NCBI RefSeq assembly: GCF_963676685.1
Contig: NC_092348.1
Coordinates: 20,150,001-20,214,000 of the forward strand
Direction of reading: 5' to 3'
DNA: 64,000 bases
DNA from: Mytilus edulis
Lineage: Eukaryota
This document shows positions 26,381-63,469 of this stretch, piece after piece. Both the position numbers and the translations under genes were made by a program. The notes below the pieces were generated by a model, which saw only the letters and a list, made by a program, of their open reading frames with translations, made no database searches and was not told the DNA's origin. Position 1 is the first letter of the stretch. The number at the start of each line of letters is the position of its first letter.

Positions 26381-29300
26381 CTATACATAATCTAAGTTAC
26401 TGACTACACGTTCGTCGGGATCAACCGATCTGACATAGCTACGACCATGTGAACTGTTACGTGTAATAATGTCATCTCTTCCTAAGTCCTCAGGAACCAC
26501 AGATATCCTACTCTTGATAAACAAACCTCTGTTATCATTCGATATCCTCGGTTGTTCATTATTTGATACTGAAGGCATTATGTGTGAAGACACCCGAGAT
26601 TCATTGTTTACAGAATTCCTTGTTTCGGATTTGATTGAATTTCTGGAATTCTTATTTGTCACATTTCTTGTATCACTTATAGTTGGACTTTCCTTGTTCA
26701 TTTTAGTGCTTGTCCTTGAGTTTCGCATCGAAGGACTTTTTTCCTCAGGATGCATTGATAGTCTACTTACATTGTTTTGGTAAAATGAAAATTTGGTTGA
26801 CATTCTAGATTCAGGTTTTGATATTTCTCCTAAAGCATCTTCTTTGTCGTCTGATTCAAGGTCCTGAATCGTAAGAACACGCTGTTCATTGTGAATACGA
26901 CTATTATTTCTATTGTTAGAATTGTTAATTGCAACTAATCCTAATGGAATATCTGTATTTATTCTTGAGACAGAATTACTATTTCTGGAATTAGATTGCT
27001 GTATAGTTGGTGCCGTTGCGGGAGGTTGAATAGAAGTTGAAGGACTTTCAACGATTGTCACTTCTGGTTGTATTTCGTCTGTTTGAAAAGAACTGCGACT
27101 TTCCATTGTAGAATTTCGTGTCCTACTTGTATGTCTGTTCTCATGACGTGTACCTATTCTTGAGTAATATGCTGGTGGTGGAGAATTTGGATATGGGGGT
27201 GGAACATATCTGTTTTGTTGTGTAGGTGCCTGTCTTGGAGCGTGGGTTGGTGCCTGTGTAGATGGCGGTGGCTGCTGTGGTATATTTGTATCTGTTTCCT
27301 GACCATGGTAGTGTGGAGGCTGTGATGTACCTTCAACTTAAAATAATTAAAACAAGTCATTATCAACTTAAATGTTGTCCAAATTTATTCAATACCATCC
27401 GTTGTCGAAACTCTGCATTAATAACGTTTTCATGTTTTGTATAACATTTAGTTCTATGGATATCGTATATAAGAAAATGTCGATTGTCGACCATTGTCCA
27501 CGAGATCATTTGCTATAATCAACTTCATGTTTTACCTCGGCTGTATTTGACAAAACCTTTCAAAATCTCATCAATGCTCTTCAACTTCGTACTTATCTTG
27601 ACCTTTTAACTTTTTATTCGAGCGTATCTGATGAGTCATTAGTAGACGAAACGCATGTCTGGTGTACATAATTATGTGCCTGGTATATTTGATGACATTC
27701 TACATCATCATTCAATGTGTTTAAATAAACGTTAACCATACACTCCGATAGTTTACTTGCCTTGTTTTTTCCTCAAATGTGGTTTAGTGTGACACTGATT
27801 TTGGTGCTTGTTACTCATCATTCTTGAATGAGCATTGTCAGGTATATCGAGATCAATATTTTTGGAAACTAAACACTAGTACAATAAACATTCAAGATCA
27901 TCCTAACAAAAACTTACACTTTAACCAAAGAGAGATTTAAGATACAAAACCTATAAGTCGTAAACGAACTGATAATGGCATGGTAAAACACTTAAACGAT
28001 CAAAAGACAAACAATATACAAAACACGAACGACTGAGCAACACGAACCCCACCAAAAACTGAGGGCGATCCCACGTTTTAAATGGTAGGCAGACACTTTT
28101 ATATCAGAAAATAAATGAGTTTCTTTTAAAACGGAACATTCATATTTTGGTCTTACAATTCTGTTTAAAGTGATGTTGTCTTTCAATGTGTACATTTCGT
28201 TTTTTATTGTTTTTATATCAAATTTGTTTCTCTTTAATTGTTTTATTTCAAACCCATAATCATTATTTGGTTTGTGTTGTTTTCTCATTGCTGGTTATGT
28301 CACATCTTCGTATTTTGGCAAATGCTAATATGATTAACAAATTAAAGCTACCCTCTTGTCCTGTGGCTAGAAAAGGATCCCCATTTACAAAAGGATCCAT
28401 CATAAGTCTCCTCTGTCTTTCCTGATCTCTCTCCCTCTGTCGCCGACGCCTTTCGTCTAGTCTCTGTCGAAGTTTCCTTTTCTTTCGGTATCGACATATT
28501 ACACAACACAGAATTACCACAATGATAGTAACGATAGTACCTCCAATAAAGACAGATACCAATATAAGTGTCAATGTTGGTATACAACACCGTGTGTCAC
28601 CTGTACCGTCACTTGGTATGCAGCAGCCCCCGACAGCACATGATTCTGTATCATAGTGTCCATTTAATGCACCACTACATTCTTTACTAAAGCAAAAACC
28701 TACAAATTTTATTTGGAAATGAAATTAAAAAAAAGTAGCAAAGTAGTATAATAATATTGAAAATCAGCCTTCTCGGAAATTGTATCAATTTATTTTCATG
28801 ATTTACTGCTGAGGTCATAATCTAGACTTTTTTCTATTTTTTGTTTGTTTTTTGTGTTTTAAATAGATTGCAGGGAGTTGTTGTGGCCTGCTTCGGATTA
28901 TCAATTTTGATTTCCATATAAGTATTGATACTGTTTTTGTACTTTTTAAATGTTTACCAGGTTCCAACGTTTGCTTTATACTTGTTCATACCATATATTT
29001 TATTTTCACCTTCTCTCTTGTCCTGTAACTTAAAAGAGGGATACGACTATAGCCATTTTTTGTTTGTTTTACATATATTGAGCCTTGATTTTTATAATTA
29101 CATTCTTTGTTATGACATCAGAAAAGTATATATAATTCTGATATCATGAAATGAACAAATCGAATCCAAAGTCACTTTAAAAATGTGAAGCATTGTGGCT
29201 CGCATTTCATATTTGACGATATCAGTGGGAAGAAAACCAAACATTCTATATTTATCCTCACTGGATTTACAATTTTTTGGTTTGAGCATTCGTTATGATG

Positions 29301-30091
29301 TTAAATCTAGATAAGCGCTCCGTAAGCATGCATCTGATTAAGTATTATTTTATTATATAAATTAAATTTGCATCCTTTAAAGTAGCATTCAATATATTTT
29401 ATACCTATATTCAATCCTTCATTAAGAGTATGCAATTTATATAATATTTGCTGTTGTGTGGCAATAATATTCTATTATTGAGAAATTATAAAACAATGCA
29501 TAATCGATTTAAGTAACTTATAACCACGAATTATCATGTTTACAATGAAACCGGAAACCCCTATTGTAATACAAAGGATCAGCCAGACAATATTTTACCA
29601 AGTACTGTCAATATATGCGGTGCAGGAAATGCTGACCCTTCCGGAGCACCTGATTTCACTCCCGGTTTTTAGTGGAGTTCGTGTTGTTTCTTAATTATTA
29701 TTTACAACTGTTGATGTAAATGTTCTTTGGTTTTTGTGAGTCTTTGTTTACTCATTGGTTTTGATTGTTATTGTCTTATTATAACATGATTTTTATATGC
29801 TTCCCATTTGTTGACAAAACACACATTTACTACTCTTTACCATATGTCTTTTTTAGATACATTCCAATACATTAAAAAAACATTGTTGTATACCTTGACA
29901 ATAAGATATCTGGTTGGTTTTTTTTCTCAGACAGCAGACATGAAATTTGATATTTTGTTTTTGCTTTTTTTTTCAATTTTTTTTTGTCACAGGCAAATTA
30001 ACGACCTAAGTGATAACAACATACCTGTAAATAACAAGAGAAAACAAAATATAATTTCCAAAATATTTCTGAATCTATATGAATTATTCAT
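26381..30091 (-). CDS. Shisa-like/STMC6 (CYYR1/WBP1/VOPP1-type) single-pass membrane protein, 456 aa; complement(join(26381..27336,28352..28699,30025..30091))
   Basis: Three exons with GT-AG boundaries and matching phase-1 junctions; total 1371 nt. Signal peptide MNNSYRFRNILEIIFCFLLLFTGFCFS, ectodomain C-x12-C-x4-CC-x10-CC, TM helix LTLILVSVFIGGTIVTIIVVILCCVIC, basic/charged juxtamembrane run, PPPY and PPAY, long S/N/R-rich tail ending LDYV. An alternative in-frame acceptor exists at 27330. An acceptor at 30119/30120 implies an upstream 5'UTR exon. Confidence 0.85.
27525..27700 (+). repeat. Retrozyme-like fragment with a hammerhead core (27620-27665), intronic and antisense to the host gene
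   Basis: CTGATGA-GTC(attagta)GAC-GAAAC-GCAT-GTC-TGGTGT; stem I weakened. Confidence 0.7.
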
Positions 30092-31638
30092 AATATGTAT
30101 CCATTATATAATATAAATCTGTAAAAAAAAAATTAAAAAATCCAACCCGACTTTTAAAGAATTAACACTTTTTGTTTGGTTAATCTACCCAATAATAATC
30201 GTGAGTTAAAACAATAGGTCAAACGAAGCGAGAAAGTTAAACATATAGCGCTTCAAGACACCGTAAAAGTTTGTACTATTTATAAAATATGCTTTGAATT
30301 TATTTTTCAAAACAACATACAAATGTATAATGGCTTTTTACCCTAACCCGTGTCTTTATAAATTTGAATGTTATTCAAGGGATAGAATGAATACAAATCA
30401 AATACAGAATTCTACATTTTGACAAAAGTATTTTATTGAATGTCTTAAAAAATGAATTAAATTAATTGAAAGATTAAGTCAAATTTGAAAAGTTACGATA
30501 TACAACTCAAAAAGGGACAATTACGTCAACAGGTTTACAAACGCGTTATAAATAACACATAATAAATACACGATTCATATGCATGTCATATTGACTTCAT
30601 ACATAATTGAGTACTTAACTTTTTTTAAAAGAAGAGGTTTTTGCCAAAATACATTGCGATATTAAAACAGCGTCACAAGCCACACGTAAAAGACTTTTTC
30701 CGGAAAACCTGTTTTACCTATTAACATAAAATAAACTCATCATAGATACCAGGATTGAAAGATCGAAATAAAAAGAAGTTTTTCGACAAATACAAGCTTG
30801 TTTGTCGCATTTCCGTATTAAACTTATTTTGTTTTTGAAATGCAGGACTGAATTCTCATAACAGACCAGATGCAGTGTTGATGCCGGACCTGCAAACACT
30901 GGGGGGGTACCTCCATTTGTGGTGGGGTTGAAGTTGCGTATTAATTAAGTTTCTGTCTAACATTTTGTAGAATCAAGGTTTTTTTTTCTGCTATGGTTTG
31001 ATTGGGATTTTTAGCTCTCTCTTGTCCGAAATAAGAATATCATCCGCTATAAATTAAACAGTTTGTTTTCAACTCGTTGTCTGTAATACTGTAAAAAGAA
31101 ATGGACGGGAATCGATATATGTAAAATAAAATTGGAAAGTTCATTTTAGAAAATCGAAATATTCTCAACTTCATAAAGTTTACTTCAAAACCATTCCTTA
31201 CTGTCGTCCGTGTGGTTGTGTGTTTGTGTGTTTGTGTTTGTATGCTATTACGATATTGGATAAAATGCATAATTCCTATCTAGAGGTTTGTGCATCCAGC
31301 CTGGTATTAACCATCTGATACACTTTGCCATTATGATTTCGACAATATCATACCTTTATTGTGATAGTTGAATGGAAAGTATTAATTGGTAATATACACT
31401 ATAAAGAATGATTGCACCATTCTAACAGGTGGCACACTTGTATAACAAAATGATCTATGGATTGATATTGTTTGATAAATTCTGAAATATTTTATGGTCA
31501 AAAGATGATTTGATCTATCTAGTTGTTTCGTCAAGGCATTTTTTATTATTCATGTTTTTAAATGGTTTGTTTTATTGTAACTTTTCAATCCGTTGAGCTT
31601 ACCTGTTGGCAGGTAATTTTCATAAGCACACGGCCATA

Positions 31639-31845
31639 CTGTAAACCAACTTATTTTCGCGAGCGATTTATTTTCGTGACTTTCGCGAGTAGAAAAATAA
31701 CGCGAAAATAAATCGTCGCGAATAGGTAAATCGTTATTAATCTACATCAAGTAAATAAGAAAATCGCGAATTTTAAAAGGCGCAAAACGGACTAAAATTG
31801 GTAAAACTCGAAATAAAGTATCCGCGAAAATAAGTTGGTTTACAG
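31639..31845. mobile_element. Tc1/mariner-type MITE
   Basis: Perfect 23-bp TIR CTGTAAACCAACTTATTTTCGCG flanked by TA on both sides. Confidence 0.85.
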
Positions 31846-31859
31846 TAAACTTAAAATAG

Positions 31860-32200
31860 GTACTAGGCTTACAGTTTGGTAAGCCAGACGCGCGTTTCGT
31901 CCACAAATGACTTATTAAATAACCCCAAAATCAAAGAAAATAAAAGGTCAAAGAAAGTTAAAAGTTAAAAGTTGCAGAACGTTGAAGACACAAATCCCGT
32001 AAGGTTTTGCAAAATGTAGCCTGTGTATTATATTCTCAATGTAGAAAATCCTTTATGTTTCGAAAAGTTCAAAATTTTGTAAAACAGTTAATTTTAATTA
32101 TGACTATATCAATGATAATTTATAACAACACAGTAGTGATGACTACAAGGCTGGTGGTACACTCTTGCAAGAAACCGACATCGGCAATGATATAGACTCA
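31860..32200 (-). repeat. Degenerate retrozyme-like unit
   Basis: GCCAGACGCGCGTTTCGTC is retained, the CUGANGA box is decayed, and the remaining unit modules are recognisable. Confidence 0.65.
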
Positions 32201-33829
32201 GACGGCGCACTGAAATCAGTATAAGATGTTTAGAAATATTATCATAACTGTTTCGCTGCTAATGAGTTTCCAGTCCTTGATGCACAAAAAATTCGACAGG
32301 TTTCGTCAAATACAGCTCCGGTACTTTAGTAATCTATTCTACATTCTAGTTAGATAATGACATGATTTGAAGCTGACATGTTGTCATGTTTGACTGGAGG
32401 GATATAGAATACATTTATAGTTATTCTAAGGTTCATATTCAGTAAATTAAAATGATATATAAGTTAAACATGAAATTTTGGAAGAGACGTATCTCGCATA
32501 AATATTATGGATTTGCAACGATTTAATTGCGATTGGAATACGGGAGATAATCCAATCTGAGCAATGATCCATCTGAATTAAACACCTGATACTTGTGTAA
32601 AGTTTTCATTTATGTACGTGTATTAGCCTATTAATGATATGTCATAACTTCGATAACTTTAAAAGCGTCTACAAAAGAATATGTTGGTTGCCTAACTTAA
32701 AATTTGTGTTATCAAAGTATAAACAAAATAATGTAGTCTTAGAGATGGCAAACTACAATGATTTTCAATCATGCCGATAATAGAACATTTCTTGAGACAC
32801 AGACTTCAGAAAATTGACTTTCAGAGCAAACCCTTATAAAAATAAAGAAAAATTACTATGCTAAATTATTAAACCATACAATACAGGTTGGTTTGTTTTC
32901 CTCTAAGAAATTTCTAATTAAATCACTTGCTTATTAATTCTGCACATAAAAGTACACGTCTTGTCAAAGTTGCAAAAAGACTTCTGAGTTCAATACGCCC
33001 GAATTGAAAAATATGATATTGTCCTTAATTTAGTATAGGGGAGAGTTCACAAATTGTTCAGGTGTTCAAGACGACCATTCAGGATTTACAAGTTTTATAG
33101 ATGTCATCATAAATTGACTGACGAATTTGAAATATGTTTGTCTAAGATGGTTATCGAAGTGTTTGATTTTGTTGTAGCCAAACCATAATAATGGGGAGGC
33201 ATTTAAACATGTAAATCGTTTTTTGAGGTTTTTTTTTGTTATTTTTTGCTAATACTCTTTTACGTCTTTGAATTCGTGATGAGAGCTTGAAACACAAGTG
33301 GGGTAGTTGAAGGGGAAACAATCTGAAATGCAGAAACGACCATGATAATGCCAATGCTGGTGTGCTTTTTTGTCTGAATGCATGCCATCTTACTTTCAAC
33401 TTTCATCTGCAACACGATGACAATTCAATCGGAAGGGTTCTTGTATGCGAAAGACAAAAAAAGTAAACGATTTCGTAGTCACTAGTACATTTATTTTTTT
33501 TACTTGGACACTTCTTGAAGAAATAATTCTCTTGTGTACCGAAAAGATGATATCGATAAAAATATTCATTGTTATACATTGAATAGGTGTTACTTTAAAT
33601 TACATCCCAGTTCGTTTGTTCTACCAGGGGTGATCTGCGCCGGATTACCCCTACCAGATCACCCCAGCTGGAGTTTTCTATTTCTACCTGCTTTCCTTTG
33701 TTCTGTAACATTTTGGCGGGAATGATTCGAACTCAAGACCTTAAGCATATAAGTCAACAAATCAAACCCCTACACAAGGACGACTGGATAAGAACTCTCA
33801 GTAATTTAACATATTTAAAGGGAAAAATT

Positions 33830-34120
33830 AAGATAACTCGCCACACTGGAAAATCGCCCTAGACCTAATCGCACCACGTTTTAACCACCTCGCCCCACTT
33901 ACAACTTTCTTAGTGACTGTGTCTGTCGTCACGACTTAATTTCATCGTGGATTTTCTATTTTTCATAAGTGGGGAGATTTGGCAGACCTTTATTCAATGG
34001 GATTTCAAACCTTTTAATAAGTGGAGCGAGTTGGTAAACAAGAGTGGGTCGATTTATTAGAAAGTGGCGATATAGAATTGGGCCGTTTAGCCAGTAGGGC
34101 GAATTGACATCGTTTCATAA
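33830..34120. mobile_element. Degenerate MITE-like inverted-repeat element
   Basis: Reiterated CTCGCC(C)CACT motifs on the left are mirrored by AGTGG(A/G)GCGA motifs on the right. Confidence 0.4.
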
Positions 34121-34948
34121 TTAAACATCGTGTTCGGGGGTCATTAAGGGTATATATTTTATGGTAATATATAAAATATATTATAATGGTATGGTTTTTC
34201 ATATATCCTAGAACAGCTTGGATGTAAAATAGTTATCCCATTTGGACTCGGTGTGTCCGAATGGGATAACTATAACTGATTGACTACATATCCTGACATC
34301 ATTTGAAATCACTGTTGAAAACATATGACAAGATAACACATTGTTATCATATTTTTTTGTATACTAGCAAACAATTCCAAAGATTACGCAACTTTTGTCT
34401 CTGTTCAATAAAGGTTATGACAATGTTAATATTTTTTTACTGGAGATATAATTTTGAAATAATTAAGAAGTAGAAAATCGTTGAAATATTTCATATGCAA
34501 CTAAATTTTAGGATACACATTATGTTTTTAAAAATATTTTTCTTTTTATTTGATCCTAAATGAATTGCTATAATGATTTTATAATTATTTTTAGAATCAA
34601 TACAAACAAAGCTAAGTGTTAGTGGTCATTACATCAGCAGCACGGTAGAACATGTATGTTTTCGCCATCAACAAATGTTTAGTATTTTATGGCTTTCATC
34701 TTAAGGTCTTTTTCTGTTGATGATCTGTAACTAATGTCTTTTTTTTTTTGCAGTGAGATTCGTCTTTACATAGACTTTGTATATTGATTTCTAAATATTT
34801 ATTTTAACAACAAAACAAATTATGCAGAGAGTTTACAATTACTGGTACGTTGCTTCAATCGAATATACAACTTAGACTTAACTAACATGGAAATGATTTT
34901 GTAAACTGTAAATAACGACAACAATGTGTGAATAAAATATTGTGTTGA

Positions 34949-37900
34949 CTATTCCGTTACTCCAGGGAGCGATATATGTGTTTCGTAGGCTGGTGGCGGA
35001 TGAGATGGATAATTATAGTTTCGAGGTGAATACGCTGGTGGAGCAGGAAGTCGATAGGGTCTTCTAGTGTCTTCATCTGTTATATAAAAATATAGAAATA
35101 AAATTTACATTACATTTCAAACGGAAAAGTACCACAATTTTTAAACCGTGCTTTACTTCTTTTTGTCTTCACTTTTGTTTTAATTTTGCAGTAGGGTTGA
35201 TTGCCGTATCATTTACGTTTACTCTTGCCTCTGCCTTTCATATGATTTTACTCCATAAAGTGTTTGTAAAACCACTAAAAACAACACAAATTGTGCAAGA
35301 CAAAAGACATGAAACAAAAAGCAAAAAATATCATTTCATGTTATACTGAGAATTTAACATGAATGAATAAGAAACGATTGCAGTAATCTGCTATATACAT
35401 ATTTGGTAATATAAATAGCGTTACTTGTAGTGTGAGTTTCCTAACTAAAATGTATGGATTCGGTTTGTTCTATGTGTAGACATGTTATTTATAGCTAGTG
35501 CTGTCTACTTGAAATTTATTTGCGTTTTTCCTTTTTTTTGTGTGAGACGTTGTTAAAGTAACTTTTTTTGTCGAAGCGATCATATTTGATATCAGAATGC
35601 TCGGCGTGGAAATAGACTTAAATTAACACAGATATTGAATGTGTAAAGTAAATTCTGTAAACATTGCATAAAGTGTATTTTAGAGAACAGATCAACAGAC
35701 ACGGCTTACTTTAAATAAAGCTAATACTAACAATGACCACTGCCCTTTCCTCGATCTTGATATCTATATCACTAACGGAAAGCTTAATACTAAAATTTAT
35801 GATAAAAGAGATGATTTTTCATTTCCTATCGTTAATTATCCATTTTTAGATGGTGACGTTCCATTGTCACCATCTTACGGTGTTTATATATCTCAACTTG
35901 TACGATTCGCTCGTGTATGTAACAATGTTTTAGATTTTAACGAGAGAAATTAATGTATTACTGAAAAATTATTACACCAGGGTTTTCGATATCACAAACT
36001 AGTCAAAACATTTACTAAATTTTATCATCGGTATAAGGACATCATTCGTAAATATAGCTGAACATGCAGACTTCTTATACGTTCAGGTATTTCACATCCA
36101 ATTTTTTATGGAAATATTCTTTATAAAGCACAAAAATGTCAGTATTCACCTCAGAAACTGACAAAACCTTTAAATAGACTTATCAAGAAGGGATATAGTT
36201 ACGATACTGTTGTCAGGTCACTAAAGATTGCTTATTTTGGCGTTAATATTGATTCACTTATAGGGTCTTTGCATCGGAACTAAACACATTTATTAAAAAA
36301 CCAGTTGTTGGCATGACACGGGTTATGTTCTTCTCATATATGTTATGATGGTATGATACTAAACCCCTAACGGGAAGGATTGTGCCTGATATTCATATGA
36401 TGAAATCATAATCTTTCAATCAGTTTAATTGAAGTCTGGAGCTGGCATGTCAGTTAACTGCTAGTAGTCTGTTGTTATTTATGTATTATTGTCATTTTGT
36501 TTATTTTCTTTGGTTACATCTTCTGACATCAGACTCGGACTTTTCTTGAATTGAATTTTAAATGTGCGTATTGTAATGCATTTACTTTTCTACATTGGCT
36601 AGATGTATAGGGGGAGGGTTGAGATCTCATAAACATGTTTAACCCCGCCGCATTTTTGCGCCTGTCCCAAGTCAGGAGCCTCTGGCCTTTGTTAGTCTTG
36701 TATTTTTTTAATTTTAGTTTCTTGTGTACAATTCGGAAATTAGTATGGCGTTCATTATCACTAAAGTAGTATATATTTGTTTAGGGGCCAGCTGAAGGAC
36801 GCCTCCGGGTGCGGGAATGTATCGCTACATTGAAGACCTGTTAGTGACCTTCTGCTGTTGTTTTTTCTATGGTCGGGTTGTTGTCTCTTTGACACATTCC
36901 CCATTTCCATTCTCAATTTCATTCCTCAGCCTCATTTCGAAACTTATTCCTCGAATTTGACATACGCGGTAACCTAATTATCAGAATGTATGTCAAACGA
37001 GACGAATTTAATTTTAAAATTATCAATCTCCCCACCTACGAATCAGTATACCAATGTCATCTGCATATGAGCTATACATTTCCCAACTCATTCAGTATGC
37101 ACGATCTTGCAACTGCTACTCAGACTTGTAAATCGTGAATCAGTGTTTTAGCAGAAAGTTGATGAACCAGGTAAATGTTAAAGTTAGTCGTATCCTATTC
37201 TAAAAATATTCATCGGAAATTACCAATTCCTTGTTGATAAATATGACGTGTCGGCTTCACAAATAATACACGATGATTATATAGATTCTCAGTACAGACG
37301 TTGTGTAACATGGTGTTCTTTTATTTGTCCTCGTAAATTATTACTTTTACTGGTTAGTCTATTTATTGTAATAGATTCATTTGACGTTGCTCTGTACTTA
37401 TACATGCCGTCATTGTGTTATTGTGCTATTGTAAATTTTTGTATTCTTTCTTTCATTTTCACTAATGGTTTTTTTTCTATATTTCCCTTTTTTGTCCTAC
37501 ATTTTTGTTTGTTTATATAGTGATTAAGATTATAACACAATGTTGAATGCTGTATTCCTTTTTTTTACATGTTTACCTATTATGTCTATTTTGTTATTGT
37601 TCACATATTCTTGTCAAGATAACAGAGTTTTAAACGACTGTCATACAAGTGAGAGGTTTGATTAGATATAAAATCAGGCTTTTGATTTTGCCATTTGAAT
37701 AGGGCCTTTCCGTTTTGAATTAACTCGGAAGTTCAGTATTTTTGTTAGTTCACTGGATACATAAATTACAAATGAGTCCTGACAAACAACGTTAACGTTA
37801 TATCGCTAGGTCTTGTAAGTGGACGAAACTTCTTTCTTATGTTTTACGTCAATTTTTTTCAGCAATCAAAACCAGGTTTCATAGTTATTGTGAAACCACG

Positions 37901-40900
37901 CTCACTAGTGGTAGCAAGAATCCGATGTGGATATCAAAACAACCTAACGATCTTTTATAGAACATCTTTTCTGTTTCAATAATATCGAACATTTGCTAGT
38001 TAATCAAAAGTGTCAAGTGGAGAATTAAAATCATCACTTCAAAAATATACGGACGCTAGCACGAGTTGGTTGACTGTTATAGAATATCTCCGATGACAAC
38101 AGATGTGTTTTAACTGTTTTTCTCGAATGAAGCCTACCCACTTAGACTTATTAACGGGTTTTTACTTACATGAAAAACACTACAATGACATCTTTTGATC
38201 AGAATCTAATTACCCTTCCATTGCACACGATAACACCCCCAGATTATTATGGGGTTGTTGTTGCTCAGTCCTAAGTCGTCTTGTTAGTGTTTTGTGTATT
38301 AATGTTTGTCCTTTTGTCGTTTTCGTATTTTCCCATGGCGTTGTTCAAAATACACATATGACTACTTGTAAACAAATGACGCGATGCCTTTTCCGTTATC
38401 ATAATTTTGTTTTGTTTTGCATTTTAGTTTTTTGATTGTACATTTGAATTTAGTTTTATATGGAACACATTACACTTCTTGAAATTTCAATTGTTCAAGC
38501 AATAATATAAATTCTCTGCCGTCTTGTCAAGCATACGTATTATACGAATGTAATAATTTTTATAAATGAAAGCAGCTAAATACTTTTTTGCGGCGATTCT
38601 AACATACGTACATGATGGCGGACCACGTGCTCGTATATTTCGGACAGGTGTCTTTTTACACTTCAAACATACACATCGTACAATCAAAATAACAATCACC
38701 ATAAGAACCATTCCACCTGCTATGGAGGCAATAATAATTGTAACCCTGAAAAATAAAATAAAATCCCTCTTGAAAAAAAACACAGAGTTGAATGCCTTTT
38801 CACACTAATTTTTAAAATAACTTACCACTTCTTGCATAGACAATTGCAATTGCTGATCTAACACAACAGTAAATTGGATAAATATGGTTAACGCACTTTA
38901 AAAAGAAAGTCCTCATGTAAAGTAGCACCACATTCTGAAATTAACTTCTAATCAGTTATTCTGTGAAAGATATTTTCAATTAACCTTAGAGTGTAGATTA
39001 AACTTGATAAAAAAAGAAAAGTGAGGAATATGAGAGGGAATTTGTTTTAAGTCTCTAAACATCACCACTTATTCCAATATCTACAAAATGTTACACGAAT
39101 AACACACCTTATGTCGCTTTTTTCACGTAGAACAAAACTTTTGGGAAGCCTTATAAACTATATTCATTTTGTTATTAAAATGTGTTTTTTGTTTTTTTCT
39201 CTCAATGTTTTTGTAATAAAAATTAAACAACATTGGAAAGACATCCTTTCTTGTCTAACGAATAATGTAGAACAATACCAACAAAATTTCAGCTCATAAT
39301 ATAAGCTCGCCGAAATGTTTAATGAAACTTTTGTGGTTTGTGAAACATAATATTAATCAACTTGAACAACTGAATCCAAGTCAGATCTGAATCACCATGT
39401 TTTATTAAATTTTAAAATTTGCATCTGTTATTCGTTATATTTTATTTATTTTGGTTACGAGCTATATACTACGTGATATGCTTCAGATGTGTACAGCACA
39501 ACAAAAGATACAACTATTTGATATTTAAAATGCCTGATACATCCGAGATTTTACTATACAAATACTTGATACATGTAGCATGTGTTAGAAAAAGTAAAAT
39601 AACAAAAATACCGAGAAATATTGAAATCGAAAAGACCCTAATCATAGGCAAAATAAAAAGCCAAAAGACACATCACACGAATGGATAACAACTATATTCC
39701 TTACTTTGTACAGACATTTTCTGATGTAAACAATGGTGAATTAAACCTGCTTTTATTTATTTCTAAACCTCTCACTATTGTGACAGTCGTTAAAGATTCC
39801 ATTATATTGACAACAATGTGATAACAAAACAAAAACACATAATAGGTAAAATTTCAAAATTAGAGGTACAACAGTCCACATTGTATTAAAATCTTAATCA
39901 CAATAAAAACAACACTAAATACATTATAAAAATGAAACAGAATTTCACAATGAAATGAATATAAACACATTTAATTCGTATGAAGCGTAAAACATACACG
40001 TATAATCGTAGAGCAAGGTAATTAACAGACTAAATCTGAACTGTATAATCAAGATAGTATCTAAATCAAGTAATTAAAGTCTTGCCATAAGTATTTCCTT
40101 CTTTTGACATGTATGAATACCTAGTATAACCTCGTTTGACAAATTGACAAATTTGGAAATTAGAATAATTTATGTTTTTGAATACAATCACCTTTTAAGT
40201 TATCAGATAATACACAAAAATGATCGTGACGCATCTTGCAGGCGCTATGCCAGATGTAATAATTGATAGTTAAATGTATTTTCCGATTCTGTTTTGTACA
40301 ATTTTTGCCAAATACATGTTTAAATTCATTCTATTCTACTTAGTATCAGGTTAACAAGTCCCCAGACGACTTTTTGAATAAAGGATTAGTATAAACTGAA
40401 GTCGTCTTCCTATTGTCCGTTTTTTTCAAATATCTTTCATCCCGAATGCCCAATATGAAATCACGAGTAGAAAATTGATTTAACAAATCTGTAAAACAAA
40501 ATCTGTAAGAGACCTTACACTACCAAACTTTAAGACAATTATACAATTGACATCAAAGGTAAAAAAAAAAAAAAGGAGAAACAGAAGACTCAAGGAAAAA
40601 TTAAAAAAGCCTGTCTTCTAAAAACAGAACATTAAGTGACAATGACGTTGATGGTTGAGAAAAAGCGACAAGCCAACACAGCAACAAAATGAGTGTAATG
40701 GTTAAATTTCGTGTGCAGATTAAAAGAAGATTAAGTTACCGACAATCTCTGCTAACAGCCTATATTAAATTTCGGAAATACAATTTTGCAGTTTTATATC
40801 AAAATTTATAAGTCAGTTTTTTGTCTATTTTAATTGCTAGCTAAATGGCATTTCAAGTCTCTTACACAAACAACGATATTTTATTTTTGTTTTGTCTGTT

Positions 40901-43514
40901 AAACTGCTGGTAGGTTTTGTTAATTTAAATATCTGATCCAGTCATTTTGTTCTCTCGAATTAGCATATACATTTCGTTGATATGTACCTTTAATCATCTC
41001 GTATATGACCTGTTGCAAGGTATAATTTGTCCCCTAATCCAACACATCTTTTCTTGTTGGTATTGAAAATCCACTAAATAGTTTCTACCTATTATATTTA
41101 TTGTTAACTTAATCTAAATTTAAGTGAAATATTTGCCGCTGATCTTCAAAAGATATCTTGAAACGGATTTTTAAACAACAATTTTTTAAGATATTGTGAT
41201 TATAATTAAATCGACCTTACTAACAAAATAACAGCATGTTATCCTTTCATCAGACATTGCCGAATGGTGCGTTTGAAAGAAAATGGGAAGGTAGATAATT
41301 GTGAATTTTCTTGATTGTAACCGCTTACTTAGAAACATTGGTAATGTGGTTTATTTGATATGCAAGTGAACTGGACAATTTGAATATAAAATTGATATAG
41401 CATTTCTTCTAATAAAAAGATGTAAAACTGAATGTCAAGCTTGGTGATTTATAGACTACTATACAATCACTTGCTTGTCACATTTTGAGGTCTAGGTACT
41501 TTTACTCGTGATAAAAAATTACAAAAAACGGGTAACTTTTTTAATTCTGTATTTGCGCAGATAACTTACACGTAATCGACATCTTGTTGAGCAGTGGAAG
41601 AAGCTGCTTTTACACCTGTACTACCTGAAATAATATAAATACGTGTGTTAACTAACTTCAATAACATGCAAAGGGGATCAAATATCAACACATATGTATG
41701 TTATAACTCCAGTCGGTAAATTATTCAATTGGTACTCAATGTCTCTGGTCGTTTCTTTTTTTATAACAATTAAATACAAAATTAGTTCAATGATCTTTCA
41801 TTTTGATCAATGTTACAGTTTATACGGTACATGGGTTACACAGAAGAGTTGCAATAACATTTAGAAGTTTATCAAAATATTGTTGGACCATTAAGCAATG
41901 TTTAATCTAATATAAGAACCGCTGTTTATAGTGTGAGAAACTTTATGTCTTGGTCAGTTATAGTTATATTGGAGTAGTAGCTTGAAGTAACAAGTTGTAA
42001 TATAGATGAGAATGAAGTAACAAGTTAAATTAGAAATTATATTGTGAACCTTTATATTTATATGATACATGTACTGCTATATGAATATCTATACGAATAA
42101 ACATGTCAATATTAAACGGACTTCGTTACTAGTATATAGACAGTGGTGATGTTATATAAATGTATATTGTGACATTTTTAATAGCTAGTTCCCTATATTA
42201 ACGGGTGAGGTGGACAAGGTCACGGATACATAGATCCGAAATAATGAGCAGTCCGAAAAATACACAGAACAAATACCCGTTATTCGAAACAATGAAAGAG
42301 ACACAAAACATAAACGGAAGAAAGACCTGTTACATTTGATTGAGGTACCTGAAGTCATAATGCTATCCGAATGTGTAAAGGATGCAAAATTGGGACGATT
42401 GTGCCGAGTCATGGCGTGTGTGGAAAGCATAGACAATTTGCGTTTCCATTCAAGCGTAACAATAGAATAAATGAAGTGGAGAGTGTATGCCGCGGAGAAT
42501 TGAATTAGGATGACTTTGTTACGTATTTATGTAAGTGACTTGATGTAAATATTTGTGAACTTTTGTGTCAGTCAATTCTTGTCTTTGTTATTTGGAAACG
42601 CATTATATTCAAACTGTGAAGAACGCTCGTGCGAATTTTCAATGACTAGAAACCCGAGATGACTCTGAGATGTTACAAAAGACTAGCAGTAAACGTATAT
42701 ATCGAAACTTCTTTTGATGTCTATAAATGTCAAATAAGATGCCAAAAATGTGGACTTCTTTTGTTGGTTTCTTATTTGGCGTATGATTTTTTTCCTTTAT
42801 TTTCCTTTTTATAAAAGCTAGACTTAATCAATGTGACAGTACCCTAACAATACCTTCCCTCTTCTTAATATTAAAACAGATGTATCTTCCAGATCTGTAT
42901 GAACCCCTCAAAATATTTTTTTTTATTTAATAACAATAATAACTGTGCTATGGACAAAAAAGCAGGAAGTTAAAATGCAATGAGACAGCAACCAAAAGTA
43001 ACAGTTTATACTTTGTATTCAAACTATTTGACGTAGCAATCTAAGAGTTTCACTTTGGAATCCACATCAATTGAAATACTGTTTTCTATTCATTAGTCTC
43101 ATTGTGGGTCTTATATCACCACTTTACTTCACCGTGAGTAGACTAAGGCGATGACATGGTTTTTTTGTGTGGCGAAAAGGAGTACAGGATGGCATAATAC
43201 TTAGTCGTATAAAATGATCATTTTCATCTGTTGATATGACGGCTTATCTATTTTCACCATTGTACACAATAATATCTTTTACTTATTTTTTCAGAATATT
43301 GACCTTTATACTTTCTAGTGAAGATTGTATCGTTTTAGTTCTCAACAGGTCATGGTATTCTCCAGTTTGTGCCTTCCCCTACCATCATCCGAAAATCAAT
43401 TGTCGATTCCCTAACCTCGTTTACTAAAAAGATACACATAAATAATCACTTTTAAACTCCTTTATACTTACCTAAATGAAATAGAAATAACCATCCTAAA
43501 AAAATATATACCAT
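34949..43514 (-). CDS. Small type I membrane protein with three PPxY motifs, 119 aa; complement(join(34949..35076,38612..38745,41570..41624,43472..43514))
   Basis: Four exons of 43+55+134+128=360 nt. Donors GTAAGT, GTAAGT, GTACGT; acceptors TTTCAG, TTTCAG, TAACAG; phases 1, 2, 1 all compatible. Product MVYIFLGWLFLFHLGSTGVKAASSTAQQDVDYVVTIIIASIAGGMVLMVIVILIVRCVCLKCKKTPVRNIRARGPPSYEDTRRPYRLPAPPAYSPRNYNYPSHPPPAYETHISLPGVTE. Confidence 0.8.
35705..36920 (+). mobile_element. 5'-truncated Penelope-like retroelement (Naiad-type): RT C-terminus plus 3' region
   Basis: 35705-36283 translates LTLNKAN...PFLDLDI...KIYDKRDDFSFPIVNYPFLDGDVPLSPSYGVYISQLVRFARVC... in one frame, with internal TAA (35951) and TGA (36059). 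The ORF ends after the RT thumb with no C-terminal GIY-YIG, as in permuted-domain PLEs. Confidence 0.8.
36334..36400 (+). promoter_or_regulatory. SECIS element (type II) in the 3' UTR of the PLE
   Basis: Helix I TCATAT/ATATGA; core ATGAT(36345)...TGAT(36387); 11-bp helix II GGTATGATACT/AGGATTGTGCC (10 of 11 paired including G-U); unpaired AAA at 36361; apical mini-stem CCC/GGG. Lies ~60 nt after the ORF stop. Confidence 0.75.
36960..37680 (+). mobile_element. Second, more decayed PLE RT C-terminal fragment (different family) plus 3' region
   Basis: Reads MYVKRDEF/NFKIINLPHL...IP.SSAYELYISQLIQYARSC...LVDKYDVSASQIIHD with a frameshift and stops; homologous to the adjacent RT segment. Confidence 0.7.
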
Positions 43515-45244
43515 ATTACAACATGTACTACACAGTAGGCACCAGTTATTTAGAGTCTTCCATATTTAATCACGACTTCTATACAAATGTCATATATTTA
43601 AAGTATCTGAATATTCGTCTGCTTTGATATTATCATTTTATTTTTTGTGTATATGTATATTTTAATTATAGATTTAAATCTTAAACAGTATTGTCGAAGA
43701 ACAACTGTATATATATATATTTGAACCATATAATAAAATAAGTTGAAATAAGTATTTAAACTTTTGAGGCCACGAATTGGTTAACTTTGATGGTTCGTCT
43801 GATTAAGGTATTTACCCGAACATTTCTAATAAATGGGTTCACTAATGGTACCATGATCTTATGAAGAGAACTATAATAGATATCACTGAGGCTTGTCTAG
43901 TTTAGTCTAATTTCATTTACCGGACATGGAAATGTTTTAAACATTAACGTTCAAAGTGAAATAACTATGCAATACCTTCCAGATTTGACACCTTCGTGTC
44001 TGCTAACATCCAATCTAATTTTAATTTTAATTTATTAAAATTATTTCAGAGTTATTAGGCATACACAAATTGTCAATGAAATATTAACCTTTACATGATC
44101 AGTGACAATTGTAAGAAGTGAGCACTGAGACAGTGATGTATCTCCTTTTGTCTGTGTCGAACTTTTTTATAATGTCGACTGTTTTCTAATTACATTTTTT
44201 TTTTGTTCTTAGCATTAAGAGAGACATATATTATATAGTACGAAGCATAATCAGTGTCTGTCCTAAAAAAATTAAATTGATACACAAATTTTACATCACC
44301 CGGAAAATACCTTTTTGAGAAATTTTAAAGGAAAATTTTAGAAATTTGATTTCAAAATTGCTCCTTAATTTGTTGTTTAAATATAAGATAAGGTATATTA
44401 TTCAATGTTTAGTGCATTTGAATGATAAGATACTATTAAAAAAAAAACCTCTTGATCCGATCAGAAACCATGCTCTTTCAGTTTCGCTGTATAATCCTAA
44501 ACTAAAAGCTAAACAAAAGACGGTCAAAGTTCTGTTTTCTTTTTCATTGTAAAATAAAGTAATGTATACACGATGTAGACAGCTATTACTCTGTAAATTG
44601 TAACAGACACGGAATTATTCTATTTCGATTTATAAAACATTTGCCAATGAAATCACCTGGTTTTATTGGTAATTAACAATACAGGGAAGAACCTTAGTGA
44701 CATTGTTGTAACATTAAGGGGCTTTGTTAACAACTACTAGTGAAATAAAGTATCTGAAGTTGAAAAAAAATCACAATCAGTGCATCCCGAGATAGAGTTT
44801 GACTAGAGTTAACATACAGGGAGAAAAGATACAAGGAGGGCAATGGAACATCATGATCTCAACAACACGAACAGATGAAGGATGTTCGGCGCCTGACAGA
44901 GTGTAACATATACGACTAAGACAGTTAAAACAATAATGCTCATTAGTAACGCAAAATAGGACTTCATGATTTCCTTGTTGAGGGTTAAATCCATTCAAGG
45001 AAACCTTTGCATTGGATTCCAAATTGTTATATTTAATTTGTTCATTCAAGTGTTTGATGGACATCATTCATCACAAATCCTTAACAACTGAGTTCATTCC
45101 AGTTTTTGGTGAGATTTGGAGTCGTGTTGCACAATTTTTTTTTGTAATGTCTGTAATCGATGTTTGTTTTTTGTAGTCATGGCGTCGTCAGCTCTTATCA
45201 AATTTTTGAACTTATTTCTCGATACACTCATGAGTCAAGTCATC

Positions 45245-45475
45245 ACAAAACTTTTAAATTTTTGAAATACTAAGGAATTTCTACCTCAGGAACAGATTAC
45301 CTTAGCTGTATTTGGCAAAAATTTTAGGAATTTTGGCCTTCAATGCTTTTCAACTTCGTTCTTAATTTGGCCTGTTTAATTATTTTGGATTCGTCTCTGA
45401 TGAGTCTTCTATTGAGAAAAACGCTCGTCCTGGGGTAAATAAAAAATTAAATCCTGGTATCTGTGTTGAGTTTGT
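45245..45475 (+). repeat. Degenerate retrozyme-like fragment
   Basis: ATTACCTTAGCTGTATTTGGCAAAA...CTGATGAGTCTT; stem II and GAAA decayed. Confidence 0.65.
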
Positions 45476-45884
45476 TTCCAATTGATTTGTAATTGTTTTA
45501 CTGTTACATCGTTGTCCAGTGTAAGAAATGTGTTGAACGCTCACAATGAAATTGAGAATGCAAACATGAATAACTCACCAAAATGCTTTACAAATATGTT
45601 CAACAAACCAAATGCTTTACAAACATGTTTAACCAACGAAATGCTTTACAACCATGTTTAATTCCACCAATTTCGTTATATTACTGTCCGAATGCAGACG
45701 TTTTCTCACTGGTTGTCATTGGTTGCTGTATGATATTATATCTGTTTCTTGTTTATTTTGTGCCATGAATCAGGAGTTAATGTGTTTATTTTTTCGCGGT
45801 GGAATGTCATTTGCGTAATCTTACAATGTATCATGTCAGGGCCATTTAATAACTGACTTGTAGGTTTTTATCGCTATTGTATAT

Positions 45885-46194: not shown

Positions 46195-47930
46195 ATAAAC
46201 TCATCATAGATACATGTACCAGGATTGAAATTTTGTATTTAATGCACCCGATGCGCGTTTTGTCTTCAAAAGACTTATCAGTGACCCTCGAATAAAAAAA
46301 GGCCAAATAATATACGAAGTTGAAGATCAGTTGGGAGCGAAAATTCCTTGAAGTTTTCTAAAATACAGCTTAGATAATCTATTCCTGGGGTAGAAAAAGT
46401 ATTTCAAAAATTCAAAGTTTAGTAAACAGTTAATTTAAACTTATGACCATATCAATGAAACATGAAACATGAAAACTTAATTAAACGCCTATTTCTACAT
46501 ATACAATATGTATTCAATGGCGTTGTACATAAATGACATATAAAATACAAAAATACTAAACAAAAATACAATATGTATGTACAATACCAAAAATTGAAAA
46601 TTTATACTGTGATACACAAGAAAAAAGTCAGAAAAGTTCAAAATAATTTTGGAAGTACAATGTTTTCAACCGACATTTAAAAATATCCAAAGATTCAGAG
46701 TTTCTTACATTTGTACCTAGTTCATTCCACCATTTTGGCCCAATAGTACTAAAGCTTCTATCTGAAAAAGTTTTCTTTTTGTTATATGGGACTGCATAAC
46801 AACCAATAGATGACTCTGACGACCTTAATGAACGTTTCGACACTTGAGGATTTAACAAATTGATCAAATATGACGGTGCATTACCTACATGACAGTTGTA
46901 CATATATGTTAAGATTTTAAATGTAATTCTGGCTTTGATCGGAAGCCAGTGTAAGTCAAACAATGCCTGCTTGGCACTGTCATACTTAGAACGGTTTAAC
47001 ACAAGTTTGGCACACATATTCTGTATACGTTGCAATTTATATAAATCAGTTTGTGAAACTCCAAAAAGTATAACATTGCAATAATCTAAATGTGAAATAA
47101 CCAAAGATAAGACCAAAGTTTCAGTTGCTTCTTTCGATAGATAGGATCTTATGCACTTTATTTTGTAGTAGTTCATCATTGCTGTCTTACATTTTTTAGT
47201 AATATGGTCTTTGAAGTTTAGAGTCTCATCCAGAAAAGCTCCTAAGTACCGTATACATGTTTTTGATTTTATAACATCTCCACAAATGATTTTTTCTTTT
47301 GTCTGACATTTAGAGAGTTGTTGTCAGCTGCCAAAGAGAATAAACTCTGTTTTCGCATTGTTCATTTTTAGTTTGTTACTGTTCATCCAGTTGTTTATAA
47401 GAACAGCGCAGTCCTGTAAGTCACGAATTGCATCCATCTCATTCGTTAATGTTGGCACGAAACGTTTATTAGCAGTATGGTCGTCGGCAAATCCGTACAC
47501 AGTAATAGATGGTGGAATAATGTCGAATAGGGTTCCGGCGTAGACTAAATAAAGCCAGGGACCTAAGCAACGATATCAATGATAGTTCGTGTCAGCACAG
47601 AAGTGTTGACTACATAGCTGGTGATACCCTCGAGGAAAAAAACCCACCAGCAGTGGCATCGACCCAGTGGTAGTAAATAAACTCATCAGTCAGATACCAG
47701 GGTTGACATTTTCTATTTTCACCAGACGCGCGTTTTGTCTTCAAAAGGCTAATCAGTGACGCTCACAAACGCTTAACAAAAGTTAAAAAAAAGCCACTTA
47801 AAGTAAAATGTCGAAGAGCATTGAGGACAAACTATTCCAAATACTAGTATTTTTGTCAAATACAGCTAAGGTAATCTATTCCTGAAGTAGAAGGCCTAAT
47901 ATTTCCAAAATCTAAAGTTTTGTAAACAGA
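46195..47930 (-). repeat. Retrozyme-like tandem array (~350-bp period) interrupted by an L2 LINE
   Basis: Degenerate HHRs at ~46250 and ~47725. Their spacing is ~351 bp once the LINE and one TSD copy are removed. Confidence 0.75.
46459..47572 (-). mobile_element. 5'-truncated L2-clade LINE (RT and C-terminus)
   Basis: LGPWLYLVY...YGFADDH...WMNSNKLKMNNAKTEFILFGS*...YLGAFLD...LDYCN...LQRIQN...LHWLPI...RSFS..GPKWWN. One TGA at 47324-47326, stop at 46628, 3' tail (TTTCATG)n, 10-bp TSD ATATCAATGA (46449-46458, 47573-47582). Confidence 0.9.
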
Positions 47931-48870: not shown

Positions 48871-49484
48871 AAAAGGTCAACTAAACATACGATGTAGCCA
48901 ACAATTTGTTAAAATAAACAAAAACAAAACAACAAAAGACTGAAATTATTTATAAAGTATTTATTTTTGTAATTGTTTGCTTTTTATTTTCGTATCGTAT
49001 AAACCTCTCATACTATGATGAAATATAAGTTGAAGTTTCGAAAGTTCTACTATGAAATTCAATGCAGATATGATTTTGTGACCATAATCGATTAAAACAA
49101 TGTGCTTTTTAATTGCCATAATGTATTTTTATTATTTTCTCCAATTCATCGTACTTTTAAAACTGTGGTCAACATTGCACAAAGAACTTTGATTTGCCAT
49201 TTCTACAAATATGTCTGTAACAGCAGCGTCACATTAGAGTCACACTATTTTCTACATAAGAATATGACTGTACCAAGTCATGAATATGACACTTGTTGTC
49301 CATTCGTTTGATGTGTTTGAGCTTTTGATTTTACCATTTGATAAGGGACTTTTCTTTTTTTTTAATTTTCCTCGGAGTTCAGTCTTTTTGTGATTTTACT
49401 TTTTTCTAGGGAAAAACAGGTTACTTTAAATAAGTATGACCATATATTTTTGGATACACCTAAACTAAATTTACGACAAATATT

Positions 49485-49960
49485 ACAAACTTCATCCCGG
49501 ATGCTTTGTTCTTGCTGTTTCAAATAAGTTTTGGATGTGTTTTCTCCCTGCTCCTGGTATTTAGCGAAGTTTTGACTCGTGCTTCGAATTTCGGTTTCAA
49601 GATCTGCTAGTGCAGTAGAAGTTTTAGATCCTTTTGCAACTTCGGACAGCTTAGATATTGTGCACTTACTGTGATGCTCTTGTAAACATTTAAGGCAAAG
49701 GATTCCGTCATGTTGTGAACAGAAAAAAAATCATATGGTTCTTTGTGATGCTCACACTTTTCATCAATGAACAGTTCTGTACTTTTCAAGTAGTCAGTTA
49801 TTGATATCAAGCGGTGGGATCGTAGTATTTTTGTCCTTTTACGATCGTTGATACATTCGTGACAGAAGCCCTCGCCACAACCATTGCACCAAACCTGAGC
49901 GGACCTTGAAAAACCATTATATCCACAAGGTTCACAACTAACTAGAGTACCCTCTGCCAT
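49485..49960 (-). pseudogene. Truncated, frameshifted paralogue of the B-box/coiled-coil/propeller gene
   Basis: High similarity to 56205-56673. +2 insertion in an A-run at ~49723. B-box His->Arg (CINDRKR vs CVKDHKR). Homology stops within the coiled coil and jumps to sequence matching the 3' flank at ~53620-53780. Confidence 0.9.
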
Positions 49961-50499
49961 ACTATACCTGTCGAACAACAAAATTGATTATGATCATGCT
50001 ATTTCAATGTATGAGTTCTATTGCAAAGAAGTCATTTCTTCCTATTGGCTTTTACCTAGAAAAGACATGAGAAATCCCAATAGCGTGGAGGTTTATTTCA
50101 TAGTTGCTTTTAATTGAGCAGTAAATACAGATTAAATGATACGCGCTATGCTATATTTATTTGTAACGGACATATTAGAACTGTGTATTTGTATGTACTA
50201 TATGCCAAATTTTAATTAATTCGAACGGACATTTCAATATGATACACAACAAAACAAAAAATCAGGTGTTTCAAACTTCAATGTAACCAGGAAGTAAGTG
50301 TAAAAGCTGACACAGAAAAGCGCCTCAAACGCACTGAATTTATAAGGTGGAAATTTCATTTCCACTATCATTAAATTATTCTGTAAATATTTTAAACATT
50401 GTATTTGCTATAGCTCTATTAAACAGTTTATCTTTCAAATCGAGAATCTTTCCACAATCAATCACTCGTTACCTGATAAAATTTGTGTATACTGGTACA

Positions 50500-56673: not shown

Positions 56674-56772
56674 GCTATTCCTGTAAAACAACATAATAGA
56701 TAATGATCATGGTATTTAAATGTATGAGTTCTATTTTAGTGGTGTCAATTGTAATCCCTAACTTATACTTAA

Positions 56773-60803: not shown

Positions 60804-61056
60804 CTGTTTTGCACAAAATATGAAGAAACATAAAGAGTGCAAAGCATCAACATATTATATACCCCTGTCAATCCGTGTGGTGCAGGGCCAAATGGAAGTA
60901 TTTTTAAAGACCGTAAGATGACCTTTAAAAAATCCGTTCCTTTGACATTATTAAGATATGTGTCCTTCCATACACAAATGTATATAACAACTTTTTCAAA
61001 GGAATATTTAGGGAAATCGACTGAAATCGACGCTACATTATTTGTTCGATCACTAT

Positions 61057-61230
61057 CACGATTTGGTTGACTCATACGATTTGGTTGACTCGAACGATTT
61101 GGTTGACTCATACGATTTGGTTGACTCGAACGATTTGGAAAACTCGAACGATGTGGTTGACTCGAACGAACGATTTGGTTGACTCGAACGATTTGGTTGA
61201 CTAGAACGATTTGGTTGACTCGAACGATTT
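61057..61230. repeat. 18-bp minisatellite, ~9-10 copies
   Basis: Unit ACGATTTGGTTGACTCGA / ...CTCAT. Confidence 0.9.
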
Positions 61231-63370: not shown

Positions 63371-63469
63371 TTTAATTCCCCGAATGCATACCCAGCCCAG
63401 TAGTCAGTACTTCTGTGTTGACTTACGTTATCATTCATATGTTCATATATAATTGTTAATTAACTGTTA

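Follow-up and report, generated by a model that had tools for sequence, protein, structure and literature searches.

The gene and its transcript

The window analysed here is a 64,000-nucleotide stretch of the Mytilus edulis genome (RefSeq assembly GCF_963676685.1, contig NC_092348.1, positions 20,150,001 to 20,214,000 of the forward strand). As listed in Table 1, in which positions count from the first letter of the window, its minus strand holds a real, spliced, and conserved four-exon mussel gene, which encodes a membrane protein of 119 amino acid residues (aa). The protein has two hydrophobic segments, a basic flank behind the second one, three cysteine residues beside it, and a tail with three conserved PPxY motifs. 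All introns are GT-AG introns with phases 1/2/1, and the coding parts sum to 360 nucleotides (nt), that is, 119 codons and a stop codon. The first PPxY motif (PPSY, aa 75-78) is formed only by splicing of exon 3 to exon 4; the unspliced frame reads PPSC. Both the four-exon model and the motif created by splicing had been proposed in a preliminary description from the letters alone, and both were borne out.

Logan contigs from public sequencing runs were aligned to positions 25800-45700, with a bar of 31 letters on the shorter side for a junction; that these runs derive from RNA is a guess. A single 849-nt contig (X1 record 4) spans all three junctions with at least 53 letters on the shorter side, and its cuts fall at the predicted GT-AG sites. 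Run X3 spans the exon 2/3 and 3/4 junctions, while its exon 1/2 joint has 25 letters on one side and lies below the bar. X18 spans the exon 3/4 junction, and X2 and X7, whose contigs carry the sequence of this gene (copy A), span the exon 2/3 junction. X4 has no listed joint and X16 spans no junction. In sum, at least one junction is spanned in five of the seven runs, and all three at the bar in one of seven. The 154 nt ahead of exon 3 in X1 are filled by exon 1, with about 100 nt, and exon 2, with 53 nt. Thus, the X1 record has no extra ectodomain exon, a result of arithmetic from bin depths, as the alignment marks the letters between two joints as "not known".

Is the 119-aa form a truncated model or the remnant of a longer receptor, or does it belong to a fusion, either with the B-box genes upstream or with the Shisa-like gene downstream? 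Four submitter models (P0008, P0011, P0016, and P0037) are such fusions. On the other hand, the X1 contig runs from exon 1 into the 3′ untranslated region (UTR) past an AATAAA signal, and the contigs end 36 to 92 nt beyond the signal at 34550. The Shisa-like neighbour has a spliced contig of its own. The 5′ UTR has an in-frame stop codon upstream of the ATG, which closes the frame, and its short upstream open reading frames (uORFs) are out of frame. All four RefSeq models have 119 aa and the relatives from Logan 114 aa, and a search among longer proteins, weak by the tool's own note, gave no relative with a real ectodomain. The fusion models were rejected on the limits of the X1 contig, the separate contig of the neighbour, and the closed upstream frame, and truncation or fusion as a whole is very improbable.

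A two-codon uORF (43516-43524, minus strand) stops one base ahead of the main ATG and could tune translation. A tandem copy of the gene, described below, keeps the same arrangement with a different second codon. Intron 3 contains a high-copy repeat (35700-36920), which contigs of all four runs aligned there cover very deeply; it has no Pfam match, and a part resembles a fragment of a retroelement.

Table 1. Features of the 119-aa protein gene and its downstream neighbour (TM, transmembrane)
Feature	Position in the window	Strand	Length or content
5′ UTR part of exon 1	43515..43570 (upper end approximate)	minus	about 100 nt of exon 1 in the X1 contig
Coding exon 1	43472..43514	minus	43 nt; aa 1-14, with the start codon and the predicted signal peptide's hydrophobic core
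Exon 2	41570..41624	minus	55 nt; rest of the predicted signal peptide, which ends at aa 21 (41605)
Exon 2, ectodomain part	41604-41572	minus	acidic, 11 aa, aa 22-32
Exon 3	38612..38745	minus	134 nt; TM helix aa 33-55 (to 38679), basic juxtamembrane stretch
Exon 3, motifs	CxCxxC 38675-38658; first three residues of PPxY-1 38621-38612	minus	
Coding exon 4	34949..35076	minus	128 nt; Tyr of PPxY-1, PPxY-2 (35041-35030), PPxY-3 (34996-34985), stop codon; lysine-free
3′ UTR	34458..34948	minus	AATAAA at 34803 and 34550; contig ends at 34514 (X1) and 34458 (X3)
Shisa-like/WBP1-type gene	26381..30091 (exons 30091-30025, 28699-28352, 27336-26381)	minus	456 aa, RefSeq XP_071173081.1

The protein is identical to the RefSeq model XP_071176829.1 (P0001), an "uncharacterized protein" of M. 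edulis. RefSeq models of 119 aa also exist for M. trossulus and M. galloprovincialis (both 97.5% identical) and for M. californianus (91.6%), the last under the name "T-cell surface antigen CD2-like". Thus, the gene is already annotated, without a function, and is not hidden as first described. The related statement that it is easily missed by annotation does not apply to the RefSeq models, which are intact at 119 aa. It has its merit for the submitter (non-RefSeq) models: all seven that were retrieved have a faulty end (two are partial, one runs on into an intron, three are joined to B-box genes, and the M. coruscus model is joined to the downstream neighbour), and therefore "easily mis-annotated" is fair. 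The fused models result from the B-box genes that lie between, and also beyond, the two copies of the gene. A literature search, supplements excluded, found no paper naming these accessions together with Mytilus, and no on-topic work was found for Mytilus NEDD4/PPxY or for mussel WW-domain transmembrane PY-motif proteins. The present analysis proposes a likely function for a conserved, lineage-restricted mussel gene which has been labelled wrongly or not at all ("uncharacterized", "CD2-like", or fused B-box models).

Protein anatomy and relatives

Hydropathy marks two hydrophobic segments, of which one is short and N-terminal (about aa 3-14) and the other is long (aa 33-55). Signal peptides are cleaved behind small residues at positions −3 and −1. 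A putative cleavage after VKA (TDA in the relative P0002) is compatible with this rule and with the hydropathy. A low-confidence AlphaFold model (mean pLDDT 59) has helices at residues 2-24 and 30-63 and coil elsewhere. The net charge is −2 ahead of the TM helix and +5 behind it, and therefore the tail should be cytosolic; an uncleaved hairpin would be expected to give the same charge result. The TM helix has two invariant small-xxx-small motifs and no charged residue. Beside it, C57, C59, and C62 (CxCxxC) and K61, K63, and K64 are invariant among the aligned relatives, and an invariant DVDY precedes it. Behind K64 the tail has seven arginine residues and no lysine, and lysine is likewise absent there in all seven full-tail relatives. 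The three PPxY motifs (PPSY/PPAY/PPAY) are spaced 15 residues apart. Three such motifs in the 55-aa tail arose in 0.18% of 200,000 tail shuffles (P = 0.002), and the corresponding value for P0002 is P = 0.0005.

Apart from the Mytilus records, the relatives P0002 and P0012, 114 aa each, are 65-66% identical across the alignment. Every full-tail relative (seven of seven, the most distant at about 65% identity) keeps all three PPxY motifs, and the fragments that consist of exon 4 only (six of six) keep both motifs of that exon. Thus, the very small ectodomain, the TM helix, the juxtamembrane CxCxxC, and the three PPxY motifs of the preliminary description are supported by the sequence and by its relatives. 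The spanned junctions, the lack of an extra ectodomain exon in the X1 record, and the kept PPxY motifs speak against all three of the refutations that this description had named. Single-exon fragments of relatives end at the same point within the first PPxY motif, and therefore the exon 3/4 intron position is conserved. In the comparison with P0002, the signal peptide (4 of 21 positions) and the ectodomain (4 of 11) have fewer identical residues than the TM helix (17 of 24), the juxtamembrane part (16 of 18), and the tail (33 of 45).

A six-sequence profile was searched against 1.84 billion representatives. It retrieved seven proteins, namely five family members and two TM-only chance matches. 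Since only five members were found, the family looks lineage-restricted, at the sensitivity of this profile. The two chance matches, P0020 of Mactra and the fish protocadherin P0021, share a TM segment and cysteines and have no PPxY tail. A PDB search with the profile gave three TM-only matches (best E 0.017), and unnamed Atlas clusters scored at most 0.85, as leads only. Two weak TM matches in the M. edulis genome itself (L003 and L004) were rejected.

An intact four-exon paralogue of 121 aa (L007/L008) lies on the minus strand at G000:C5:20222919-20230449, 38 kb from the gene and 9-16 kb past the upper end of the window. This tandem copy has PPSY/PPTY/PPAY motifs, a two-residue insertion in the TM helix, and a weak-looking exon 1 donor. 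The pair differs by 18.5 synonymous changes at 96 sites and 11.5 replacements at 261 sites (dN/dS 0.20, p = 6e-5), which shows purifying selection on the tandem copy. A genome search found no third paralogue. Exon 1 of the tandem copy is uncovered in four of four runs, and the contigs on its exons 2 and 3 are of the copy-A type, which does not imply that it is silent. One X3 contig on exon 1 of copy A has two of its five listed differences in common with the tandem copy.

A possible adaptor of NEDD4-family ligases

What would a protein of this design do? PPxY motifs bind group-I WW domains. By analogy with known proteins, it is fairly likely that the mussel protein is a membrane anchor which recruits and activates a NEDD4-family (C2-WW-HECT) ligase, with a client. 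The signal peptide would be cleaved, so that some 11 residues face outwards while the tail lies in the cytosol, and the CxCxxC cluster would be palmitoylated. The three PPxY motifs may bind tandem WW domains and thereby recruit the ligase to either the plasma membrane or an endosomal one, and this binding would relieve the autoinhibition of the ligase. The ligase may then ubiquitinate a neighbouring membrane client, recognised through the conserved TM helix and juxtamembrane part, and client and ligase would both go to the lysosome. At four loci of the M. edulis genome, HECT exons come after WW exons (C2:89.06-89.07, C4:25.28-25.30, C5:11.62-11.64, and C9:15.19-15.21 Mb), the WW of C4 being closest to NEDD4L; the presence of these NEDD4-family genes makes the adaptor idea plausible. 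A complex prediction with one WW domain of the NEDD4-like locus and the tail (aa 66-119) scored 0.01 against a mark of 0.34 and is silent either way. The drift of the signal peptide and ectodomain, while the TM and juxtamembrane parts are held, counts for the adaptor reading. Further points for it are the spliced contigs, a PPxY count above chance, the motifs kept among the relatives, the charge difference across the TM helix, the selection on the tandem copy, the tail without lysine, and the two acidic residues behind the first motif.

Published systems of this kind include WBP1L, which is palmitoylated, binds and activates NEDD4-family ligases via three PY motifs, and promotes CXCR4 ubiquitination (PMC6991692). 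CYYR1, with three PPxY motifs, brings WWP1 to late endosomes and causes its loss in the lysosome (PMC11399591), and Comm and PRRG4 clear Robo from the cell surface (PMC5578492). Stretches poor in lysine are frequent among proteins of the ubiquitin system, some of which avoid self-ubiquitination in this way (PMC10169902), and short-ectodomain adaptors are a known class, for example PRR7 (PMC5033326).

Several points weigh against the adaptor reading. It names no specific client, and the profile search of 1.84 billion representatives gave no homologue with known function. Pfam gave seven weak matches for P0001, none reaching the cut-off. The better conservation of the PPxY residues, identical to those of P0002 at nine of nine positions versus 24 of 36 in the rest of the tail, favours the reading, yet it is a marginal result (one-sided Fisher p = 0.044) based on one distant pair. 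The mature chain holds no sequon, YxxPhi, or dileucine signal, and thus the tail has no sorting signal of the latter two types. The Pro-rich, lysine-free stretch is short, at 55 aa, and is therefore weak evidence for it. Most of the 33 WW matches in the genome lie outside the four ligase loci, and other partners are possible. In one study, TMEM207 bound YAP and not NEDD4 (PMC12757530); since TMEM207 is reported to bind YAP or WWOX rather than NEDD4, PPxY motifs alone do not name the partner.

These last two points bear on a different explanation, in which the partners of the motifs are WW proteins other than ligases (YAP/Yorkie, WWOX, MAGI, KIBRA, or Salvador), tethered at the membrane as reported for TMEM207 and VOPP1. 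TMEM207 is reported to bind WWOX and YAP via PPxY, and NEDD4 binding was not found (PMC6125347, PMC12757530). It is also an Atlas look-alike of the mussel protein, with a score of 0.90 that is a lead only. On the other hand, the three spaced PPxY motifs and the juxtamembrane cysteines match WBP1L and CYYR1, which are described as binders of WWP1, WWP2, and ITCH (PMC11399591, PMC6991692), and the lysine-free tail fits proximity to a ligase. Such tethering is unlikely.

Still less likely is a ligase sink or activator without a client, which would act by auto-ubiquitination and lysosomal loss in the manner of CYYR1, or a protein which is itself a substrate via K61, K63, or K64. The 11-aa ectodomain offers clients little surface, the three juxtamembrane lysines are invariant, and CYYR1, with a similar exon layout and three PPPY motifs, is described as degrading WWP1 (PMC1863428, PMC11399591). 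The TM helix, in contrast, is conserved beyond the need of a plain anchor, and its two invariant small-xxx-small motifs suggest a partner within the membrane.

If the adaptor reading is true, the protein would be a compact test case for how a NEDD4-family ligase can be directed to a membrane client when there is hardly any ectodomain. This kind of system is already well known from vertebrates, flies, and yeast.

The nearest likeness is to the STMC6/Shisa-like proteins (WBP1L/OPAL1, WBP1, VOPP1, TMEM92, and CYYR1). They resemble the mussel protein in their single TM helix, very short luminal part, juxtamembrane cysteines, and three PY motifs in a cytosolic Pro-rich tail (PMC5578492, PMC11399591, PMC6991692). 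CYYR1 in addition has a signal peptide, four small exons, three PPPY motifs, and an exon 3/4 junction at the first motif, just before it rather than inside it as in the mussel gene (PMC1863428). However, the mussel protein lacks the six-Cys (C*C*CC*CC) luminal domain of STMC6, with no cysteine in aa 22-32 or in the mature ectodomain of P0002. It also lacks the aromatic W/Y-W/F/I-W motif that STMC6 proteins have on the luminal side, just ahead of the TM helix, where it has only the invariant DVDY. It has no WBP-1 Pfam match at E <= 10, and its WBP1-like Atlas score of 0.85 is a lead only. It may thus be WBP1L/CYYR1-like in function, I infer from these analogies, yet no member of their family.

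TMEM207 also has a single TM helix, a C-terminal PPxY motif, and no canonical Cys-rich domain (PMC6125347). The mussel protein differs in having no WY/WF/IW motif, and it matches the TMEM52 Pfam model (PF14979) only at E 6.8. The 1.84-billion-representative search gave no vertebrate member, TMEM207 being a vertebrate protein. Commissureless, PRRG4, and yeast Rcr1/2 are short single-pass proteins with PY motifs that bind Nedd4/Rsp5, a layout like that of the mussel protein (PMC5578492). The first mussel motif (GPPSY), followed by two acidic residues, resembles GLPSYDEAL of Comm, although it is PPxY rather than LPxY and the final hydrophobic pair is missing. Comm has no signal sequence, whereas the mussel protein has an N-terminal hydrophobic segment. 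PRRG4 has a Gla domain, for which the mussel protein has no match, and sequence homology to Comm, PRRG4, or Rcr1/2 was not detected.

NDFIP1/2 have three TM helices and N-terminal PY motifs, and PMEPA1, which bears a Smad-interaction motif, lacks a cleaved signal peptide. The mussel protein, compared with NDFIP1/2, has one TM helix and a short N-terminal hydrophobic segment, and its PY motifs are C-terminal. The PPxY motifs of NDFIP recruit NEDD4-family ligases to membranes (PMC11399591), and those of PMEPA1 likewise. PMEPA1, NDFIP, and Commissureless had been the analogues named at the outset; Commissureless stands, while the single-pass STMC6-type proteins (WBP1L, CYYR1, and TMEM207) seem, by layout, better analogues than NDFIP. 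The earlier interpretation as a whole is partly supported.

MLANA (Melan-A) was the top Atlas look-alike (0.90, 165 shared features) and was flagged as probably the wrong family. PRR7 and MLANA have no cleaved signal peptide, and by the PDZ-end rule the mussel protein has no PDZ end; it has no SH2-type YxxPhi either. Immunoreceptor tyrosine-based activation motif adaptors (CD3zeta, FcRgamma, and DAP12) have a charged TM residue and paired YxxL/I motifs, neither a charged TM residue nor a YxxPhi in the tail being found in the mussel protein. PRR7-type palmitoylated transmembrane adaptors share with it a short extracellular part, one TM helix, and a motif-bearing tail (PMC5033326).

A cellular small fusogen like the FAST (fusion-associated small transmembrane) proteins of reoviruses was also considered. 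The best Pfam match is Orthoreo_P10 (E 0.0008-0.003, 18-20 bits, five Mytilus sequences), below the cut-off of 21.4. A TM helix followed by palmitoylable membrane-proximal cysteines and a polybasic stretch is common to p10-type FAST proteins and the mussel protein, a likeness generic to many single-pass proteins (PMC12945298). In contrast, the mussel protein has no ectodomain cystine loop or hydrophobic patch, and its residue 2 is never glycine, which speaks against N-terminal myristoylation. P0002 matches Orthoreo_P10 only at E 0.043, over the TM helix and basic stretch alone, and the conserved feature of the tail is PPxY. A fusogen is thus extremely improbable, and the mussel protein should not be filed under STMC6, NDFIP, PMEPA1, TMEM207, or FAST.

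The Shisa-like neighbour and surrounding genes

The Shisa-like gene lies 4.9 kb downstream on the same strand, in three exons. Its product has a signal peptide, a C*C*CC*CC six-Cys ectodomain, a TM helix, juxtamembrane cysteines, and PPHY/PPPY/PPAY motifs, and the 162 residues around these motifs contain no lysine and 20 arginines. One of five family members scanned gave a Pfam WBP-1 match (E 1.8e-5), below the cut-off. The protein fits the Shisa-like/STMC6 pattern (PMC5578492, PMC6991692). Its anatomy gives no support to the names under which RefSeq lists it, "probable serine/threonine-protein kinase tsuA" and "integrator complex subunit 6 homolog".

Relatives of both genes occur in the records of M. 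trossulus, M. galloprovincialis, M. edulis, and M. californianus and on one 270,188-bp contig, which points to a kept synteny. On that contig, the exons of the 119-aa protein gene are about 81% identical to the M. edulis gene, and the fragments of the neighbour about 51%. In every assembly showing both, the two genes lie side by side in the same orientation and in synteny, and both encode three PPxY motifs in a lysine-free stretch after a phase-1 intron. The 119-aa protein may then be a mussel-lineage adaptor derived from the adjacent STMC6/Shisa-like gene by loss of the disulfide ectodomain, which would choose its client by the TM helix alone, with its invariant small-xxx-small motifs, and activate a NEDD4-family ligase with three PPxY motifs; I hold this to be unlikely. 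A profile comparison of the two families gave probabilities of 8.7% and 34.5%, over the TM region only, and therefore common descent is a lead and not a result. A genome search with PF11669 found no match anywhere, the neighbour included, and is uninformative because even the neighbour gave none. If the descent is true, the protein would be a stripped-down natural module for the targeted degradation of a membrane protein.

The B-box genes form a cluster of single-exon, minus-strand genes with a B-box and a beta-propeller (TRIM-like) at 54979-56706, 49362-49987, and 61979-63459 of the window and at about G000:C5 20237500-20239600. The cluster comprises one 575-aa open frame and several broken copies, with Pfam matches below the cut-off. 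An ETS-domain exon of the ERG/FLI1/FEV class lies on the minus strand 8 kb below the window (L013:1966-2538, G000:C5:20141966-20142538), and a PNT exon on the opposite strand at C5:20062130. A six-Cys-like frame in L013 was rejected, being the opposite strand of the ETS exon. ERG lies on human chromosome 21. Human CYYR1 is placed on chromosome 21 (PMC1863428), and an old linkage of the CYYR1-ERG type is possible.

Two adjacent open frames on the minus strand (46628-47575) resemble what I take to be the end of a long interspersed nuclear element (LINE) reverse transcriptase; the longer one has no Pfam match. Tandem-repeat arrays appear as repetitive open frames at 7700-8100, 9120-9700, 22300-22930, and 60850-61250 of the window.

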